A DNA stretch of 64,000 bases from a virus. The stretch's first letter is position 1. Each line of letters opens with the position of its first letter. A model generated the notes under the pieces. That model had not been told where the DNA came from, searched no databases, and saw only the letters and a list, made by a program, of their open reading frames with translations. Shown here in pieces: positions 4,728 through 62,888 of this stretch. The stretch covers positions 1 to 64,000 of IMG/VR virus record IMGVR_UViG_3300025128_006668; one strand, written 5' to 3'. A program made the position numbers and the translations under genes.

Positions 4728-4767
4728 CTTTTGTATGGGTTTGCTTTTTTATTAGGACACAGGAGAT

Positions 4768-5202
4768 TTGGGATATATGAAATTAAAAAGAGGACAAAAG
4801 CTTTGTAAGCACTGTGGTGCTGTCAATGCCGCCAGAAGCAGCAGATGTAATACTTGTGAAAAACCATTTATTTCTAAAAATACTCCCATAAAAAATGAGG
4901 TTAAGGACTGGGAAGGTCTTAAAAAAGGAGATTGGTTAAGGGTAATTCAGGGAACCGGCCCATATTTTACATGCAAAAGACAGACAGATGAGGCCAGCGT
5001 TGGTGATAAGATATATATGGGATGCAAGGGCAAGTATGAAGTTATCAGTATTGATCGTAAGGGACTTCTATGTAAGGCCCTAGGCAGGAAAAACTGCGGT
5101 GTGGAATTTGTGTACATGGGAGAGAGAAACTTCTGCGAGTATACTGGTATTACAAAAGAGCCGCACAGGATTGTAAAGTTAAGGACGAGAAAGAGACTTT
5201 AG
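4768..5202 (+). CDS. hypothetical protein with N-terminal Zn ribbon
   Basis: CKHCG.VN..R...CNTC; AGGAG upstream. Confidence 0.7.
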   Translation: MGYMKLKRGQKLCKHCGAVNAARSSRCNTCEKPFISKNTPIKNEVKDWEGLKKGDWLRVIQGTGPYFTCKRQTDEASVGDKIYMGCKGKYEVISIDRKGLLCKALGRKNCGVEFVYMGERNFCEYTGITKEPHRIVKLRTRKRL

Positions 5203-9442: not shown

Positions 9443-9779
9443 GGGGGTGAAGAGGATTCGACTGTTAGTTGAAACAATAGTTGCATGTAGTAGTTGAACG
9501 AATGGCTACTATAAAAATCGTTCATACTTTTAAGTGCAGAAAAGAATTTCTCACTAGCCGCTTAGTGCGGCAGGGGTATCACAGCCCTGTAAACCAAATA
9601 GTGATGACGCAGATAAATCTGATAGAGGCTGTACACTTGAGTCATCGTGCATGATGGTAATAATTTACCTGACTCCGATAATCGGATAGCTTTGTCTGCT
9701 GTGCGACTACAACAGACTAAACATGTAGGGATTATTGCAGAGGCTAGTCAGGACGCGGGTTCAACTCCCGCCACCTCCA
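9443..9779 (+). ncRNA. ssrA: tmRNA, tag peptide (A)AEKNFSLAA
   Basis: 5' GGGGGTGAAGAGGATTCGAC and 3' GACGCGGGTTCAACTCCCGCCACCTCCA form an Ala acceptor with G3-U; resume codon GCA at 9536 after TAAGT; tag ends LAA-TAG at 9565. Confidence 0.95.
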
Positions 9780-9789
9780 CTAAAGCTTA

Positions 9790-53157: not shown

Positions 53158-53592
53158 ATGGCAAATAGTAGGACGGAGAAGAGCCCATATCCTTCCAGAT
53201 ATTCTCCGGGAGGATGGGTCTCTGGCTCTCAGTATATAACAGAGCTGATCTGCGAAAAAAAGGCTCGCAGAGAAAATAAGGATCTTCCTAGAAAGTTCTG
53301 GGAGGACAAGGACTGGGAAAAATATTTTAAATACCAGATAACTCTTGCAAGCCAACTTATTAAAAAGTTTGGTGAAGAAGCAGTCATAGCAGCACTAAAG
53401 GACAACAGGTGCTGGTCTACGTACTCTTTAAGGTCTCCCTTTCTAGTTCCTGTAATTGAGGAAAAGAAAAAGGAAATATCTGACAACCGGCCAGAAGCCG
53501 AGTATAATATTAAAGACGAAGAAGAAGTTACTCATAGAAGTAGCAATAACAAGAAGTCAATAATTTCTAAGTTAAGGGATTTAGATGAATAA
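53158..53592 (+). CDS. hypothetical phage protein
   Basis: ORF track; directly upstream of recA. Confidence 0.7.
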   Translation: MANSRTEKSPYPSRYSPGGWVSGSQYITELICEKKARRENKDLPRKFWEDKDWEKYFKYQITLASQLIKKFGEEAVIAALKDNRCWSTYSLRSPFLVPVIEEKKKEISDNRPEAEYNIKDEEEVTHRSSNNKKSIISKLRDLDE

Positions 53593-54562
53593 AGACATTA
53601 TCAAAGAATATGGTAATGTCCTTCACGATCCCGCCTCAATAACAGAAAGACCTTTAGAAGTCTTGTCTGTAGGCCCAAAGCTAGACATAGCTCTCGGAGG
53701 AGGCGTGCCTGAAGGTTCATTATTTATTATGACTGGCCCAGAGAAGGTCGGCAAGACAGTAACAGCTCTGACTTTCTGTGCCAATGCGCAGAAGCATTAT
53801 GAGAGGAAGATTTACTACGCGAACATAGAGGGAAGACTTAAGAAAAGAGACTTAGAAGGAATAACAGACCTTACATTAGACTCAGAAAAGATGCAAATTA
53901 TTGGCTCAACAGAAGGAAACATTCTGTCTGCCGAAAAGTATCTGAGCATTATTGACAACATTGTTCATACTCAGCCGGGATCTCTAGCTATTGTGGACTC
54001 ATTTTCTGCATTGTCAAGCGAATCTGAACTTACAGGAAACCTAGAAGATGTTCAAGTTATGAGCGTGCAAAAAGTTCTGGCTAAGTTCTGTAGAAGGATT
54101 TCTAACGTACTGCCCATCAATAGAGTCACTGTTGTTGGAATTACCCACCTGATGGCTAATATGAATAGGTTTGGGAGGGGGAAGACTAAAGTCGAAAAGT
54201 CAGGAAGCGCATTAAAATATCAGGTTGATGTAAAGCTTCATGCGAGCCACTCAACGGCTTTGATGCAAGGAGATACTCAGATAGGCCAGACTGTGCACTG
54301 GCAGATTACGACCTCAGCTATCGGGCCTCCGGGGCAGAAGGTAGAGAGCCATATTAGATATGGTAAAGGCATTTGGAAAGAAATGGAACTGACAGACTTG
54401 CTTATCGACTTCGGGCTCATCAGCAAAGCTGGAGCTTGGCTAAAGCTCCCTAATGGAGAAAAGATTCAAGGTAAAGTCAACTTGGCCAAATACTTAGAAG
54501 AGAACCCTGAGCAGTATGAGACATTTAGAAAAGAAGTGTTTGAAATGGTTGGTATGGAATGA
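53585..54562 (+). CDS. recA: RecA/UvsX-like recombinase
   Basis: LDIALGGG.P.G, GPEKVGKT, IVDS, SG.ALKY, I.YGKGI, K.GAW. Confidence 0.9.
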   Translation: MNKDIIKEYGNVLHDPASITERPLEVLSVGPKLDIALGGGVPEGSLFIMTGPEKVGKTVTALTFCANAQKHYERKIYYANIEGRLKKRDLEGITDLTLDSEKMQIIGSTEGNILSAEKYLSIIDNIVHTQPGSLAIVDSFSALSSESELTGNLEDVQVMSVQKVLAKFCRRISNVLPINRVTVVGITHLMANMNRFGRGKTKVEKSGSALKYQVDVKLHASHSTALMQGDTQIGQTVHWQITTSAIGPPGQKVESHIRYGKGIWKEMELTDLLIDFGLISKAGAWLKLPNGEKIQGKVNLAKYLEENPEQYETFRKEVFEMVGME

Positions 54563-54957
54563 TGGATACAAAGTGCTCCCAAGCCTACGAATGCAAGATA
54601 TTCATAGGTTCAAAAAACGAATACTTAAAACAATATTTCGATAGAAGCATATTGCTAGAATATATACAAGGCTTTCAGGACAACTACCATAAACTTATAC
54701 CAGTGCGAGTAACAGGGACGGAATTTGTATGTGGGAGCAAGTATCAGGAGTCAGGTTGGGAAATAGCTGTTATAAACTACCCTAAGCTAGACCTTTGCAT
54801 AGAAGAAATCGAATATTTCTGCGAACAACTAACGGAGTATCTTACAGACCGTCTAAGGCAAAAGAGAGTCACCCTCATGACTCCAAGCATTAGCACTATG
54901 TATTACACTCCGTTATGCTTTCCACAGTCGGCAAGTAGTAAGGCTGCCTCGCCTTAA
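54559..54957 (+). CDS. hypothetical phage protein; 3' end overlaps RNA motif copy A
   Basis: E.GWEI..INYP...L...L.Q.RVT motif; ATGA overlap with recA. Confidence 0.7.
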   Translation: MMDTKCSQAYECKIFIGSKNEYLKQYFDRSILLEYIQGFQDNYHKLIPVRVTGTEFVCGSKYQESGWEIAVINYPKLDLCIEEIEYFCEQLTEYLTDRLRQKRVTLMTPSISTMYYTPLCFPQSASSKAASP

Positions 54958-54986
54958 CTAAGGCTGTGCGACAACTTAATGAGGTA
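54917..54986 (+). ncRNA. pseudoknotted RNA motif, copy A
   Basis: CTTTC, P1 CACAGTC/GGCTGTG, inner stem TAAGGC/GCCTTA, loop TGCCTC pairing with tail GAGGTA. Confidence 0.7.
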
Positions 54987-54991
54987 CTTAG

Positions 54992-55408
54992 ATGAAGATA
55001 CGTGATCTGAATAATGATATTCACAAATGGAATCTGCAGGGGTATGTTGTTCGTGCAAATGAACAGCGTCCCCGATCTAAGTTACATCTTGCCGCAAGAA
55101 ACATATTGATAGAAATGTTTCCCACTGTTCAGATATTAGAAGAGGTTCTAATTCCAATAACTCGCAACGAAAGAGGTTATCTGGATTTTTACATCAATAC
55201 GCTTAAGCTTGCTGTAGAGGTTCATGGGCAGCAGCACTATAAATTCAATTCACTATTCCATACATCTGCCCAAGATTTTGCAAATCAACGAAAAAAAGAC
55301 CGGCGAAAGCAGGAGTGGTGTGAGTATAATAATATAACGTATCTTGAGTTACCTTATAATGAAGGCATTGAGGAATGGAAAACGCGAATAGTCCAAAGGA
55401 ACGACTAG
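54992..55408 (+). CDS. PD-(D/E)XK endonuclease (DUF559/Vsr-like)
   Basis: LDFYI....LAVEVHG.QHY, D.RK.EWC..NNI...E..Y. Confidence 0.8.
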   Translation: MKIRDLNNDIHKWNLQGYVVRANEQRPRSKLHLAARNILIEMFPTVQILEEVLIPITRNERGYLDFYINTLKLAVEVHGQQHYKFNSLFHTSAQDFANQRKKDRRKQEWCEYNNITYLELPYNEGIEEWKTRIVQRND

Positions 55409-55863
55409 AGCAAGTAGATAAAGTCTTAGACGAATATGAGTCAGGGCTTGGACTTGTGGGCTACGCCGGAGACTTTCACGACCAGACTGTGAAGTCATAC
55501 ATGAAAATGGAGAGAGTGCAAATGGAAAAGCTTACGGTAGAGGAATGCGCTGAAGCAGCACTTCTACTGGGTGGGTTTTCATTCTATCTTCAAAGGTCTT
55601 ACAATAGAGAAATTGCTAGAGTTAATTGGGCCTCCTCCAACTTAAAAAAAATGATAGCCGGAAGAGAGCGCCAGTACAATGGATCATGGGACAGTCAATA
55701 CTACCAAGCGGTAAAAGACGACAGCTATGCGATTAAGCTAGAAAGCATAAAGACATACGCTCAACAAAGGGCTGATAGGCTTACCTACCTAGCAAGCTCC
55801 ATCAAAAATCTAAGTGACCTATATATAAACTTACAGAGAGCAAAGATAAATAAACATGGTTGA
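55375..55863 (+). CDS. helical protein, possibly a UvsY-like recombination mediator
   Basis: All-helical coiled-coil character and position in the recA module; the family assignment is a guess. Confidence 0.55.
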   Translation: MENANSPKERLEQVDKVLDEYESGLGLVGYAGDFHDQTVKSYMKMERVQMEKLTVEECAEAALLLGGFSFYLQRSYNREIARVNWASSNLKKMIAGRERQYNGSWDSQYYQAVKDDSYAIKLESIKTYAQQRADRLTYLASSIKNLSDLYINLQRAKINKHG

Positions 55864-56239
55864 TAAAAAAGAATTACTCAAACTTCTTTCTGAGCTTTCT
55901 CCTGAGGAACTTGAGTCCATAATGCCTAAGAAAAAACGTAGGCGGGGCAAGGGTAAGAGAAAAAAGAACCGATCTGCGAATAAGCCCAGTGCTTCTGAAG
56001 AGAATAAATTTGACGACATGCTGTCTAGCATACGATTTACAGATGAGGAGAAAAGAGAGCTTGAAGAAGCTACTAAGGTAGATGATGAGGCTGATCAAAC
56101 GAAATCAGTCTCTGCTCGTCCTGCTGCCTCTACGGTAGAAGTTACTTGCTGCGCCTGTAATAAAAAGTTTATCGTATCGCCATCTGTGGTATTTTCTGTA
56201 GACAGATGGAAATGTAACGCTTGTATAACAGGGAGATAA
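55856..56239 (+). CDS. protein with basic tract and C-terminal Zn ribbon
   Basis: KKKRRRGKGKRKK; CCAC...CNAC. Confidence 0.65.
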   Translation: MVDKKELLKLLSELSPEELESIMPKKKRRRGKGKRKKNRSANKPSASEENKFDDMLSSIRFTDEEKRELEEATKVDDEADQTKSVSARPAASTVEVTCCACNKKFIVSPSVVFSVDRWKCNACITGR

Positions 56240-56240
56240 T

Positions 56241-57686
56241 ATGCTTAACGATCTACCAGCAGAAAGAGCTGTCCTAGCAGGAATATACCGATATGGGGCA
56301 GAGACATATTATGATGTCGCAGACATAATAGATGAGTCCTCTTTTACAGACGATTCAAATGCTGTAATATTTTCCTGTATGAAGCGTGTCCTAGAAACAG
56401 ATGACACTGTCTCCCTAGATATCCCTACGATGCTTTCCGCAGCAAAGGAAATGGGTTTAGAGACTTTCTTCAACACTCAGGAAGTGCAGCACTTATCTTC
56501 TATTACTAAGTATCCAGTCTTAGCAACTAACGTCAGGAAGTTTGCTGCTAAGGTCAAGAAGCTTGAGATAGCAAGGATGATGTATGACCAGCTTGAGCTA
56601 ACAAAAGAGAAGTATCTCGAAATAAAAGGAGACGAGCCCATAGCAAAAATACTTGGGCTAGCTGAAGACTCAATTATGGAAGTCACAGGTATGGTCTCAG
56701 GAACAGATGAAGCTCCAACGCAGATGTTTGACAACATTGTTGAATATTTAGAAGAGCTCTCTGAGGAGCCTGTTGATCAGATAGGGATCTCTACTGGATT
56801 CCCAAGGTATGACTTTGCTATCGGAGGAGGTCTTAGACGCGGCACGGTCAATGTGATTGGAGCTCGACCTAAAACCGGTAAGACATTGCTAGCAGACAAC
56901 ATGGGGGTACATATAGCTAAGCAAGGTGTTCCTGTGCTGAATCTTGATACTGAAATGAGGAAAGAAGACCATCAGCACAGACTGATGGCTATGCTAACAG
57001 ACGTTCCTATCAGCGAGATAGAAACAGGTGCTTTTTCTCGAAGTCCTATAGCTAAGAGGAAGGTAGAACAAGCTGCGAAAGAAATAACAGATATACCGTA
57101 TTACTACAAATCTATTGGAGGCTGCTCATTTGAAGAGCAACTATCAATCGTAAGAAGATGGCTGAACAGAGTTGTAGGTCTTAACGACAAGGGAAAGGCT
57201 AACGACTGTGTGATTATATATGATTATCTGAAGCTTATGGACTCCGCTGAGATTAAAGGAGATATGAAAGAATTTCAGGTTCTTGGCTTTATGATGACAG
57301 CTCTCCATAATCTATCATTAAAATATGAGATACCTATACTTTCCTTTGTACAATTAAACAGAGACGGCATAAACAAGGAGTCAACAGATACTGCCTCTGG
57401 CTCAGATAGAATCATATGGCTGTGTTCTAACTTTACGATATATAAGAGTAAGTCAGATGAAGAAGTAGCTAAGGACGGTCTTGAGAACGGAAATAGGAAG
57501 CTTGTCCCCGTAATCGCTAGACATGGACAAGGACTTGAAGACAGAGATTATATTAACATAATGCTTAAAGGAAACTGCGGTAAGATAACAGAAGGCAAAA
57601 CTGCTTTTGAACTTGATAGTGCCGTAAGTGCTGTAGAAGAAGGTGATTTCTTTGATGAACCAGAAGACGACATCCCGTTCAAGTAG
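56241..57686 (+). CDS. dnaB: replicative DNA helicase
   Basis: AERAVL, GISTG, ARPKTGKT, DTEM, IYDYLKL, QLNR. Confidence 0.92.
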   Translation: MLNDLPAERAVLAGIYRYGAETYYDVADIIDESSFTDDSNAVIFSCMKRVLETDDTVSLDIPTMLSAAKEMGLETFFNTQEVQHLSSITKYPVLATNVRKFAAKVKKLEIARMMYDQLELTKEKYLEIKGDEPIAKILGLAEDSIMEVTGMVSGTDEAPTQMFDNIVEYLEELSEEPVDQIGISTGFPRYDFAIGGGLRRGTVNVIGARPKTGKTLLADNMGVHIAKQGVPVLNLDTEMRKEDHQHRLMAMLTDVPISEIETGAFSRSPIAKRKVEQAAKEITDIPYYYKSIGGCSFEEQLSIVRRWLNRVVGLNDKGKANDCVIIYDYLKLMDSAEIKGDMKEFQVLGFMMTALHNLSLKYEIPILSFVQLNRDGINKESTDTASGSDRIIWLCSNFTIYKSKSDEEVAKDGLENGNRKLVPVIARHGQGLEDRDYINIMLKGNCGKITEGKTAFELDSAVSAVEEGDFFDEPEDDIPFK

Positions 57687-59837: not shown

Positions 59838-60875
59838 ATGTCAATACCTATAGTCTACTTTAGAAGTAGCTCTTTCAACTCACACAGAATGTGTCCTATG
59901 CAATATTACATGGAATATACTCTTGGTTGGAGAGGGTCATCTGGAAAGAAAGCTGACAAAGGAACTATTGTTCATAAGGTTCTTGAGTTGTGCGCACTTG
60001 CAAAGAAAGCCTTGCAAGATGGTCATGAAATTTTTAAAGATAATGAGATTGGTGAGATAGAAACTGCTAACTATGATACAGAATATCTAGATGAAATTAT
60101 TGATAGGGTATACGAATATTATACATCTAGAACTACACATCATGACTGGAAGCCATTAGACCTAAAGCATTGCCGAAAATGGGTTTGGAAAATATTCAAT
60201 GACGACGACGGATTCTTTGATCCTAAGAACAGAACAGTTGTAGAAGCAGAACCACACTTTGACTTTGAAGTAGATGAAGAATGGGCAGAATATAGTTATA
60301 CCTTAGATGATGGTACCGTCTTGGAGGGGAAGCTAGCGCTAAAGGGAACAATAGACCTTATAACAGATGTGGGAGACGGAGTCTATGAGATAATAGACTG
60401 GAAGACTGGCCGCAGACTTGACTGGGCTACAGGAAAAGAAAAGACGATGGCAAAGTTGCAGAAAGATCCACAGCTAAGGATGTATCATCTAGCATGCAAA
60501 AAGCTTTACCCAGATGTAGAAACATTTTTAGTAACTATCCACTTCATGAATGACGGCGGTCCTTTTACACTCCATTTTCAAGATAGCGATATACCTGAGA
60601 CATTAGAGATGATAAGGGCAAAATTTGAGACAATTAAAGACACTAACTTTCCTCAACAAATAAAGTCATGGAAATGCAGCAAGCTTTGTTCTGCGGGAAA
60701 AACCACATACGAAGGAACAGATGTCAAAGTCATGGGCAACATGTTTGGAGCTCCGCTAACAAAGTGCCAGCAGACAGAAGCTATGATAAAAGAGAACGGA
60801 ATAGAGTGGGTGACAAGTAACTGTATGTCCCCAGAACATGAAATAGGTAAGTATAAAGCTCCCGGAGAAGTATGA
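59838..60875 (+). CDS. Cas4/AddB-like PD-(D/E)XK exonuclease
   Basis: N-terminal CP, GT.VH, GTIDL, IIDWKTG, QL.MY, C-terminal C...C...C. Confidence 0.85.
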   Translation: MSIPIVYFRSSSFNSHRMCPMQYYMEYTLGWRGSSGKKADKGTIVHKVLELCALAKKALQDGHEIFKDNEIGEIETANYDTEYLDEIIDRVYEYYTSRTTHHDWKPLDLKHCRKWVWKIFNDDDGFFDPKNRTVVEAEPHFDFEVDEEWAEYSYTLDDGTVLEGKLALKGTIDLITDVGDGVYEIIDWKTGRRLDWATGKEKTMAKLQKDPQLRMYHLACKKLYPDVETFLVTIHFMNDGGPFTLHFQDSDIPETLEMIRAKFETIKDTNFPQQIKSWKCSKLCSAGKTTYEGTDVKVMGNMFGAPLTKCQQTEAMIKENGIEWVTSNCMSPEHEIGKYKAPGEV

Positions 60876-62221
60876 TGTACGCAACAGAGATTAGTCGAGG
60901 AAGGAAGCTGCTAATACCTAAAAGCAACATACAGGCAGAACAGTTTATTCAGAAGGAAGCAGCGTTCTTTATGTCCTGTGTTAATGCTTATATAAGGGAG
61001 CTACTAGAGTGGATAAACATATCTGACTTTGAAGTTACTGGCATAACTGATCATGGAGAAGTGTACCTAAGAGAAGAAGATAACGGTTTCTTTGTTGGGC
61101 CAAACGGAGGGTTCTTCGCACCAATAACAAAGAGAAAGAATGGAGAGCCGTTTGCGAAACCAAAGTGGAGTGATACACAGCTAAAGGCGATGTTTTGTAA
61201 TGTATTTAATGAGACGCATACTCATGATTCTTGCGCGTCTTGGAAATTAAATATTATTGCTAACGGTGCTAATAAGATAAAGTCCTCTATAAAGCGATTC
61301 AAAAAGAGGGGCGACTCATATGCTGATTATATCAAAGACATGAAACCGCCTGTTATAACCAACCCTACTATCTGCCACAAAAAGGCTTTAGCAAAGATTA
61401 AAGATGATGCCTTAGTAATAAGAGGGGCTAACAAACAGGAGGTCAAGATAAAAGACTTTTTTATACCCTACAAAAAGTATACAAAAGTTCATAAGAAGAC
61501 ATTTGGAGGAAACTTAGTTTTATCGAAAAAGAAAAATAGTAAGCATAACGAATACACTATAATGATCAAGTGCAAAAAGCATTTCTATTCTCCTTTAGGA
61601 TGGATAGGTATGGACATAAACAAATACAACCCTGAGTGGCTTGCCATAGCGGAAGATGCCAAAGATGGTTTCTACAACATACTTCCTAAGCCTGATAATA
61701 TTGATAAGATAGAAAAGATTAGAGATGACATAGACAAGATGATCGACAACAAGGAAAGATCATCAGGATCGACTAAGAGAAGAGCAAGATTAAGAAAAGC
61801 AAAAGATAGGGCTGTATCAGCGTATAGAAGAGAAATCAAAAAGTTTTTACTCCCGATGTTAGACTTCGTACAGTTATGTCGATTTGGACTTTGCTTAGAC
61901 GGTGTTGCTACAAAAGGAAGAAGCTTTGGTCAGCAAGAAATAAATTCTATACTTGAGAAAGAATGTATAAAGAGAAACATTCCCTTTGCTATGACAAATC
62001 CTAGAATGACTACTAGGTCTTGTTATTATTGCGAAGAGAATAATCCTAGGCCTAAAACCTCTGGGCCAGATGCGGGAGTCTACATTTGTGGAAACCCTCT
62101 TTGTCCTAAGTTTGAGTCTAGGGAAATTCCCCATGTAAATGCCGCTAGAAACATAGCAAGGCAGGGTAAGAAACGCTTTCTAGAGTCGGCGGTAGAAGAG
62201 GGTATAGCTAGCCCTGCTTAA
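60872..62221 (+). CDS. tnpB: TnpB/Cas12f-like RNA-guided protein with altered RuvC site
   Basis: RuvC-I IGMDIN, RuvC-II LCLDGV, NPRMTTRSCYYC...CGNPLC Zn finger, RuvC-III PHVNAARNI. Confidence 0.8.
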   Translation: MMYATEISRGRKLLIPKSNIQAEQFIQKEAAFFMSCVNAYIRELLEWINISDFEVTGITDHGEVYLREEDNGFFVGPNGGFFAPITKRKNGEPFAKPKWSDTQLKAMFCNVFNETHTHDSCASWKLNIIANGANKIKSSIKRFKKRGDSYADYIKDMKPPVITNPTICHKKALAKIKDDALVIRGANKQEVKIKDFFIPYKKYTKVHKKTFGGNLVLSKKKNSKHNEYTIMIKCKKHFYSPLGWIGMDINKYNPEWLAIAEDAKDGFYNILPKPDNIDKIEKIRDDIDKMIDNKERSSGSTKRRARLRKAKDRAVSAYRREIKKFLLPMLDFVQLCRFGLCLDGVATKGRSFGQQEINSILEKECIKRNIPFAMTNPRMTTRSCYYCEENNPRPKTSGPDAGVYICGNPLCPKFESREIPHVNAARNIARQGKKRFLESAVEEGIASPA

Positions 62222-62246
62222 GGCTCTACGATAACATAAATAGCTA
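62175..62246 (+). ncRNA. pseudoknotted RNA motif, copy B (overlaps the tnpB stop)
   Basis: CTTTC, P1 TAGAGTC/GGCTCTA, inner stem AGGGT/GCCCT, loop TAGCTA pairing with tail TAGCTA. Confidence 0.75.
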
Positions 62247-62250
62247 CTAG

Positions 62251-62325
62251 CCTTTCTACTGTCGGGCATATAGTTAAGTGGGCGACCAGCTTAAACTGAG
62301 GCAGTACGTAATTCTTATTGGTCGC
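62251..62325 (+). ncRNA. pseudoknotted RNA motif, copy C
   Basis: CTTTC, P1 TACTGTC/GGCAGTA, inner stem TTAAG/CTTAA, loop GCGACCA pairing with tail TGGTCGC. Confidence 0.75.
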
Positions 62326-62342: not shown

Positions 62343-62888
62343 ATGATAAAGCTAGACTTCACAGAAGAGATGGTGAAAAGTGCTAGAGAAAAAGCACAAT
62401 CTCTCGGGGCCATAAATAACTCTATACTCAAGGGCGGTGGAAATGTTGCCGGATACCTTGGAGAGGAGGCTCTTGCTCCGTTTATCGGCGCTGAAATAGT
62501 CAGTAACAATAGAGGTCTAGATAAGTACAATCATGACCTACTCCTACAAGATGGTCACAGAATAGAGGTTAAAACAAAAAGGAGGACTGTCGCGCCAAAA
62601 CCTTACTACGACGTATCTGTTGCCAAAACAAGCAAGCACCAACAGCCAGACATATATGCTTTTATTAGTATAGAATTTCAAAGGGCTAGCTCAGGGCATC
62701 CTAAACAATATTTCGGACTAAAGAACATCTGGCTATGTGGATTTATGGGCGCACACGACTACTGGGATATGGCAAAACTGTGGAAAAGTGGACAAATTGA
62801 CAAAAGAAATAACTTCAAAACTCATGTTGACATGTATAATTTAGAGATAGCGGATTTACACAAAGACTTGTCAGGAATACTTGTATGA
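62343..62888 (+). CDS. PD-(D/E)XK nuclease-like protein
   Basis: G.LGE, HD.......IEVKTK, D.Y.F. Confidence 0.75.
   Translation: MIKLDFTEEMVKSAREKAQSLGAINNSILKGGGNVAGYLGEEALAPFIGAEIVSNNRGLDKYNHDLLLQDGHRIEVKTKRRTVAPKPYYDVSVAKTSKHQQPDIYAFISIEFQRASSGHPKQYFGLKNIWLCGFMGAHDYWDMAKLWKSGQIDKRNNFKTHVDMYNLEIADLHKDLSGILV

Follow-up and report, generated by a model that had tools for sequence, protein, structure and literature searches.

In this study we examined a short RNA element, which we call module C, at positions 54916-54986 (+ strand) of the window, i.e., the first 64 kb (64,000 nt) of the 125,401-nt IMG/VR virus record IMGVR_UViG_3300025128_006668, which is estimated to be about half complete. 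Module C is a stand-alone member of a family of double-pseudoknot RNAs that belongs with the gene for a phage TnpB-like protein, and it stands between two phage open reading frames, ORF132 and ORF138, which in several relatives are directly fused. Its 3' tail is the Shine-Dalgarno (SD) sequence of ORF138, and this tail is complementary to a loop within the module itself. We consider the chances about even that C is an orphan TnpB-associated, omega-RNA-like scaffold that has been kept as a leader masking the ribosome-binding site (RBS) of ORF138, a function that we predict from comparative data. This reading ranks first because the loop of C complements the SD in every lineage and because C provides the only SD that ORF138 has. 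The features on which the argument depends are the following, all type I modules being of the kind found in the window:

54559-54957, + strand: ORF132, between a RecA-like gene and ORF138; stop codon TAA at 54955-54957.
54916-54986, + strand: module C, stand-alone type I double-pseudoknot RNA of 71 nt; covariance model (CM) E 1.4e-7; orthologues in four other records.
54992-55408, + strand: ORF138, encoding a small Vsr/DUF559-like nuclease-domain protein of 138 aa, conserved across many marine phages.
60872-62221, + strand: TnpB-like gene, 449 aa; Pfam TNB domain at E 7.6e-4, below the cutoff.
62174-62246, + strand: module A, overlapping the last 15 codons of the TnpB-like gene; CM E 3.7e-5.
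62250-62325, + strand: module B, beginning 4 nt past the tail of A, its own tail ending 17 nt before the ATG of ORF181.

A CM built only from five orthologues of copy B, and run unfiltered over both strands of the whole window, recovered 54916-54989 (module C, 36.2 bits) and 62175-62249 (module A) at the E values given above, and the next match stood at E 0.94. The copies are about 71-76 nt long and have in common a CUUUC start and a first strand closing with GUCGG, and their return strand is flanked by UAAGGC or UGAGGC on the 5' side and by CG on the 3' side; the helix sequences of A, B and C are completely different from one another. The CTTTC start lies at 54918 in C, 62176 in A and 62252 in B, such that A begins 7,258 nt downstream of C. 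These coordinates and the CM match uphold the earlier note on this DNA, which had described C as sharing its architecture with two tnpB-linked copies located 7.2 kb away. In module A, the stop codon of the TnpB-like gene (TAA, 62219-62221) immediately precedes the 3' strand of the main helix, P1.

When exact pattern and helix descriptor were combined, the 125-kb record contained three module copies only, all on the + strand; because the descriptor yields 0.55 chance matches per shuffled genome, it was used solely in conjunction with the conserved letters. One further exact-pattern match, at 85123 (- strand), had no partner strands and was therefore taken as chance. The same exact pattern retrieved 14 stretches from IMG/VR, of which eight had a fully complementary P1 and six paired at the level of chance (1-2 of 4 pairs). 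Rfam models applied to the whole window at gathering score matched only tRNAs and a transfer-messenger RNA (tmRNA), with no omega-RNA or reRNA model among the hits, and a search of the two module regions at E up to 10 returned nothing relevant, i.e., no omega-RNA, ribozyme or exoribonuclease-resistant RNA (xrRNA). Module C is a real, stand-alone member of the family and one that is selectively kept.

Four helices make up the module, with support counted over alignment cells (one base pair in one copy):

54916-54918 with 54931-54933, + strand: P0, 3 bp; its loop holds UUUC, the P1 5' strand (54923-54929) and one G.
54923-54929 with 54962-54968, + strand: P1, 7 bp; 98/98 cells paired, both-side changes at 5/7 pairs.
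54940-54944 with 54951-54955, + strand: P2 hairpin, loop 54945-54950; 68/70 cells paired, 5/5 pairs change on both sides.
54981-54986 with loop 54945-54950, + strand: pseudoknot, 3' strand GAGGTA; 81/84 cells paired, 6/6 pairs change on both sides.

The P2 hairpin lies within P1, its loop pairs with the 3' tail, and P0 spans the 5' strand of P1; because P0 closes over that strand and the P2 loop reaches the tail, the module is a double pseudoknot. Across 14 copies (three paralogues in four to five lineages), P1, P2 and the pseudoknot form standard pairs in 247 of 252 cells, with both-side changes at 16 of the 18 pairs, whereas 2000 column shuffles gave a mean of 168 paired cells and a maximum of 185. 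Given hand-set registers and related sequences, this covariation is strong support for the fold and not a probability. The orthologues of B taken alone are paired in 96.7% of cells, compared with 24-44% when the partners are slid. The fourth helix, P0, joins the first base of CUUUC, together with the two bases preceding it, to bases 2-4 past the P1 5' strand; it is paired in 45/45 cells of 15 copies (slid controls, 11-24/45), occurs as G-C, C-G, A-U, G.U and U-A pairs, and covaries at two of its three pairs. Compensatory changes are also evident among the orthologues of C alone, where P1 shows A-U replaced by G-C, P2 shows C-G replaced by U-A, and the pseudoknot has compensatory changes of its own. 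Several unpaired letters are conserved as well, namely UUUC, the G after P1, the UAA before the P1 3' strand and the CG after it.

Relatives were collected by profile-based scans of IMG/VR and of metagenomes, in addition to the exact-pattern scan of IMG/VR. Modules A, B and C occur in identical order and spacing in five records: the window, a contig 92% identical to it, and G001, G002 and G003. The TnpB-like proteins of these records are as little as 45-47% identical. In the window, the last 13 codons of ORF132 enter module C, and its stop codon falls at the 3' strand of P2. Relatives of ORF132 end with ..SIMYEEE..* directly before ORF138, without a module. In record G018, for example, the ORF132 homologue ends with ..SIMYEEENNFE and overlaps the start of ORF138, and the same module-less junction is present in L063, L064 and L070; C is thus present in five records and absent at the same place in these four. 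Although G018 carries a TnpB-like gene of clade I with one type I module, its ORF132/ORF138 junction is empty. Because a phage with a TnpB-like gene has an empty junction, module C is, on this comparative evidence, an insertion between ORF132 and ORF138. Contigs of four DNA runs contained no clean module-less joint at this junction; one joint of low identity ran from 54480 to 55271.

The tail of the inserted module, GAGGTA, is followed by five bases (CTTAG) and then by the ATG of ORF138 at 54992, so that letters and coordinates agree with the earlier note in taking the tail as the SD placed 5 nt before the nuclease start. The GAGG of this SD pairs with CCUC in the P2 loop in four of four lineages of C. 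The two outer pairs of the pseudoknot covary, one appearing as G.U, A-U or U-A and the other as U-A, U.G or C-G. The one informative single-nucleotide polymorphism (SNP) in the contigs of the four DNA runs falls in this helix: at 54982, A is replaced by G in three of the four runs, which converts A-U into G.U and keeps the pair.

The association of the family with TnpB-like proteins extends beyond the window. Every TnpB-like gene of two protein clades bears modules at its 3' end, and the module type is specific to the clade. In all lineages found, type I modules overlap that end of the gene. At 12 loci with an ORF138 of 80-83% identity, ORF138 has a different leader, which we term type II, and at all 12 (one of them cut by the contig end) a TnpB-like ORF ends just upstream, the modules following directly behind its stop. 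The TnpB-like profile matched three of three searchable type II records at E 1e-49 to 1e-55, and none of nine related records (45-192 kb, 30-100% complete) that are free of both leader types. Type II leaders fold into four helices with the topology of type I, with 97.7% of cells paired, 14 of 26 pairs changing on both sides and none of 500 shuffles equalling it. The type I CM does not detect type II modules, including those of G006, so the kinship of the two types rests on their common topology.

Type II loci carry further modules in front of the TnpB-like gene. Locus L128 (in G006) reads RecA, ORF132 homologue, two tandem type II modules, TnpB-like gene (418 aa), two tandem modules and ORF138. 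Its module pairs lie at 1100-1282 and 2440-2637; consecutive modules overlap tail to head, and the first module of the downstream pair overlaps the TnpB-like 3' end (parsed by eye, at this one locus). In these sister phages, then, a whole TnpB-like cassette with type II modules occupies the junction at which the window carries C. The cassette of the window, TnpB-like gene with A and B, is itself an insertion: among 18 relatives of ORF181 that were read, 13 have the exonuclease stop overlapping the start of ORF181. From these comparisons we regard the family, its fold and its bond to the TnpB-like cassette as firm.

Other arrangements behind TnpB-like genes were also seen. In G018, a single module without an A+B tandem (L145, 2424-2499) lies wholly inside the TnpB-like 3' end and stops 4 nt before the ORF181 start. 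No such module follows the distant TnpB-like genes of L012, L017 and L018. Behind another distant TnpB-like gene (33% identity), L011 has at 4766-4930 a long outer stem with an inner hairpin whose loop can pair with the 3' tail, followed by a U run (by eye).

A stand-alone module might be nothing more than the decaying solo end of a lost TnpB-like cassette, devoid of function. C does stand alone where sister phages have the full cassette, and it is missing from G018 without visible harm to gene order. However, its four helices have been kept, with compensatory changes, in four lineages whose TnpB-like proteins have diverged to 45-47% identity, and it supplies ORF138 with its SD. We therefore regard a functionless relic as very improbable, the least credible of the explanations considered.

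What the putative protein partner of these RNAs can do bears on the remaining alternatives. A search of 5.8 billion proteins returned seven homologues of the TnpB-like protein. Its AlphaFold model (pLDDT 75) matches chains of Cas12f, ISDra2 TnpB, ISFba1 TnpB and Fanzor2 at E 1e-12 to 1e-9, with TM-scores of only 0.30-0.37, and we assign it to the TnpB/Cas12 fold. The RuvC D-E-D triad is incomplete. In a profile alignment, a His near residue 421 occupies, throughout the clade of the window, the position of the Asp in the Cas12f ADxNAA motif, which we take to be the third RuvC catalytic residue (RuvC-III). The same His is present in 12 of 12 type II proteins, and the Asp is kept in two distant homologues. 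An invariant Asp of the TnpB-like protein falls in a column that we read as the second RuvC catalytic position, which is usually Glu. Because His replaces the RuvC-III Asp both in the window clade and in all 12 type II proteins, DNA cleavage by this protein appears doubtful.

The best-known RNAs that accompany such a fold are the omega-RNAs (reRNAs) of TnpB in the IS200/IS605 and IS607 OMEGA systems, such as that of ISDra2 (PDB 8h1j). Omega-RNAs are located at the 3' end of the TnpB gene and end in a pseudoknot strand at the 3' terminus of the scaffold (PMC10097598; review PMC13565253); for ISDra2, nt -6 to -2 form the 3' strand of the pseudoknot, immediately ahead of the guide (PMC10097598). 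The phage modules resemble these RNAs in lying on or after the 3' end of a TnpB-fold gene (module A and the type II modules), in having the 3' end of the scaffold in a pseudoknot with an upstream part, in occurring also as stand-alone copies and in changing RNA type with protein clade. They differ in being shorter (71-76 nt compared with 116 nt in ISDra2), in forming a four-helix double pseudoknot, in standing in tandem without a guide-sized spacer and in being found upstream of the gene as well. Moreover, the third RuvC Asp is replaced by His in the associated protein, and the cassette occupies stop/start overlaps within phage replication modules; no transposase was noticed in any of the loci read. 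Where an omega-RNA would continue into a guide of about 16-20 nt, modules B and C are followed by gene starts, which might act as guides, whereas A leaves no room before B, and neither do the overlapping type II modules.

By this analogy, C could act in trans as a guide RNA that is loaded by the TnpB-like protein made 7 kb away, with the 16-20 nt past its tail, i.e., the start of ORF138, serving as the guide. The complex would then bind or cut co-infecting relatives with an empty junction, thereby spreading the module and nearby markers, or it would repress the gene. The position of the pseudoknot strand at the scaffold 3' end agrees with this proposal, as do the presence or absence of C among relatives at a single junction, the full cassettes that sister phages hold at that junction, and the exact insertion of the TnpB-like gene with A and B at a stop/start overlap that is empty in the 13 of 18 relatives mentioned above; the would-be guide, for its part, has 3 mismatches in 20 positions to the empty site of G018. 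Set against it are the 1-4 nt separating A from B and the tail-to-head overlap of type II modules, which leave no room for a guide, the modules upstream of the TnpB-like gene, the shortness of all modules and the His at RuvC-III, which makes cleavage doubtful. Furthermore, no conserved motif precedes the ATG at empty sites (by eye), the 125-kb record offers no second target at <=1 mismatch, and there is no promoter signal above chance: a promoter and terminator scan found no site at the modules and no excess, with 25 sigma-70-type sites against 21.4 expected, under a consensus that may not be that of the phage. Taken together, we think a trans-acting guide unlikely, at perhaps one chance in five.

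A broader version of this proposal would combine targeting with translational control. One TnpB-like protein with an altered RuvC would serve several scaffolds at different junctions, and C would target the start of ORF138, with relatives being cut, nicked or blocked and then converted, while the scaffold doubled as a translational gate. We judge this combination to be possible, though as doubtful as the simple guide. Another class of mobile RNA, the non-autonomous elements consisting of an omega-RNA only (PATE-like), resembles C in being a scaffold that lacks a nuclease gene and is present or absent among relatives. The phage records, however, have one stand-alone copy each, and TnpA-type transposon ends and many dispersed copies were not found in them. 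No transposase turned up in the few ORFs scanned, a sample that did not cover every ORF and did not include a dedicated transposase search.

Alternatively, the modules might be elements of RNA punctuation or stability, acting either as knots that stop exonucleases or as sites cut by a ribozyme or an RNase, in which case C would stabilise or delimit the ORF138 message, and the message of an inserted gene would be separated from its neighbours or would protect them. The modules stand exactly at gene boundaries, in tandem, and in type II phages on both sides of the TnpB-like gene; they have a short 5' helix reaching into the region enclosed by P1 together with a loop-tail helix, and their unpaired nucleotides are conserved. 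This topology may resemble that of exoribonuclease-resistant RNAs. However, no ribozyme or xrRNA family of Rfam matched the small module regions even at E up to 10, and this explanation leaves the complementarity of the C loop to the SD unaccounted for. We hold it to be improbable, slightly more so than a guide function, and better placed than a functionless relic.

The masking of an SD by RNA structure has precedents in phage. In T-even phages, the RBSs of the endonuclease genes I-TevI, I-TevII, I-TevIII, segB and mobE are sequestered by RNA structure (PMC2988022). Module C is alike in that a stable RNA structure pairs with the SD of a phage nuclease gene located in a replication and recombination operon. 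There are four differences: the SD of C is the pseudoknot 3' strand of a conserved, multi-copy module rather than an arm of a simple hairpin; no known late promoter, of the kind that in such leaders yields a shorter transcript open to translation, lies inside the structure, the sigma-70-type scan having found no site at the module; ORF138 is widely conserved and not a sporadic homing gene; and the module also occurs where no RBS is masked.

The conservation of ORF138 is evident from 254 homologues at E <=1e-3; among the 120 listed (108-157 aa), nearly all are exactly 138 aa long and identities range from 59 to 100%. The protein matches 566 stretches in IMG/VR. Upstream regions were read at 78 of 80 loci, two being excluded because the match did not begin at residue 1, and in most of these the ATG is at or overlaps the stop of the preceding gene, leaving no leader (by eye). 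That ORF138 is a sporadic or mobile homing gene was considered and set aside, given 254 homologues of near-uniform length that are usually fused to an upstream stop. Its assignment as a nuclease draws on PHROG families named homing, HNH or intron nuclease (best 3.3e-15), on two homologues whose source names read 'very-short-patch-repair endonuclease', on a cluster of look-alikes in the ESM-Atlas in which 18% of members have DUF559, and on an invariant D..EVHGxQH block. No Pfam or NCBIfam model matched ORF138, and its profile retrieved only spurious repeat proteins from the PDB sequences. The 'DUF559-like' label given to it earlier accordingly finds some backing in the PHROG families, the source names and the Atlas members, and it is weakly supported, without a Pfam or NCBIfam match. 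Two loci (L059 and L072) have another hairpin leader in the 100 nt before the ORF138 homologue; their record, G011, is without a TnpB-like match, so not every structured ORF138 leader accompanies a TnpB-like gene.

The explanation that we favour, an orphan scaffold retained as an RBS-masking leader, can be set out as follows. The family of double-pseudoknot modules belongs to the cassette of a phage-specific TnpB-like protein, with C as an orphan member. Its insertion split a stop-to-start fusion of ORF132 and ORF138, and selection has kept the module, which supplies the SD of ORF138 and would hide it in its last helix. Translation of ORF138 would consequently need the knot to be opened. In the lineage of the window, the likely opener would be the ribosome finishing ORF132 inside the module, with binding by the TnpB-like protein as a plausible further input. 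Masking of the RBS in vivo, unmasking by translation of ORF132 and binding by the TnpB-like protein are the steps that we infer in this scheme.

Several observations weigh against this explanation. The pairing of loop and SD is restricted to C and does not extend to A and B: no gene start lies behind A, and the SD behind B is unpaired, the tail of B ending 17 nt before the start codon. The SDs of type II leaders (and of B) are likewise unpaired, lying 2-11 nt past the tail; because only C hides an SD, masking is not the basic function of the family. In G001, ORF132 is gone, and the RecA-like stop is followed by 9 nt and then by the module, which continues up to the ORF138 start. Since no ORF enters the module there, unmasking driven by ribosomes cannot be general. 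The copies of C in G002 and G003 have one G/A mismatch in the pseudoknot. The nested single-strand fold of 54900-55000 is no more stable than shuffled sequence (z -0.62), the signal lying in covariation and not in energy. The minimum-energy nested fold pairs ORF132 coding sequence (54904-54916) with the SD region (54977-54986); this helix competes with the pseudoknot, and G001 does not conserve its sequence. The evidence for co-occurrence with TnpB-like genes comes from few related lineages and incomplete records, and no omega-RNA family of Rfam matches the modules.

The earlier note had also pointed out that the upstream ORF reads into the motif in frame, as it does at a tnpB-linked copy. This is real in the window, where ORF132 ends at 54957, and it is not conserved, given the arrangement in G001; by this comparison the read-through is incidental. 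Its two interpretations of C, a translational switch for the nuclease or a trans-acting scaffold for the TnpB-like protein, both survive as candidates. The switch is favoured by the loop-SD pairing in four of four lineages, by the covarying outer pairs and by the SNP at 54982 that keeps its pair, and it is tempered by the fact that masking is not family-wide. The scaffold gains from the modules at TnpB-like 3' ends, from the separate module type of each clade, and from the lack of modules in nine of nine TnpB-less records.

The surroundings of C constitute a phage replication and recombination module on the + strand, in which the following genes, in addition to those given above, were recognised:

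53585-54562, + strand: RecA/UvsX-like recombinase gene; Pfam RecA E 6.8e-25.
After ORF138 and before the exonuclease gene, + strand: DnaB-like helicase gene.
59838-60875, + strand: PD-(D/E)XK exonuclease gene; Pfam PDDEXK_1 E 9.8e-21; its stop overlaps the TnpB-like start.
62343-62888, + strand: ORF181, with a PD-(D/E)XK restriction-endonuclease-like fold on weak evidence.
Downstream of ORF181, + strand: DNA polymerase III alpha gene.

For ORF181, the best Foldseek match has E 2e-3, the top rows are all restriction endonucleases, and D65, E75 and K77 are invariant. DNA nearly identical to the record is present in marine, sponge and aquatic metagenome runs from 13 studies. Among the INPHARED phages, the DNA of 53585-57686 had no match and the TnpB-like gene had no protein match. 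Elsewhere, the virus record encodes a full-length tmRNA (Rfam 122 bits, E 3.7e-47) and four tRNAs (Rfam), the places concerned being 9443-9782 (+ strand), 13-239 and 1338-1409. Between about 44124 and 47409 there are three tandem paralogous stretches, roughly 1.5 kb apart, containing the repeat families D1 and D6 at 61-84% identity; these are probably three paralogous genes in a row.

TnpB systems are known as transposon nucleases, each with a single long guide-RNA scaffold that follows its gene. Here, the TnpB-fold protein is a divergent one found in widespread marine phages, and its RNAs are short, modular, tandem double pseudoknots. The cassette lands exactly on the stop/start overlaps of replication and recombination genes, and one of the modules has been retained by itself in front of a conserved nuclease gene, as its leader. 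A full-text search of the literature found no account of phage TnpB-like genes with tandem pseudoknot modules or orphan leader copies, the supplementary catalogues of omega-RNAs being outside that search. The two module types represent a compact, strongly covarying RNA fold without an Rfam match. If they are not guide scaffolds, they would form a new, cassette-borne class of RNA that repairs or controls expression at the site of insertion. If they do serve as guide scaffolds, they would count among the smallest on record, and orphan guides may provide multi-locus targeting in the competition between phages. Should one protein indeed serve several such scaffolds, the system would amount to an RNA-guided 'intronless homing', with marker exclusion, in marine phages.

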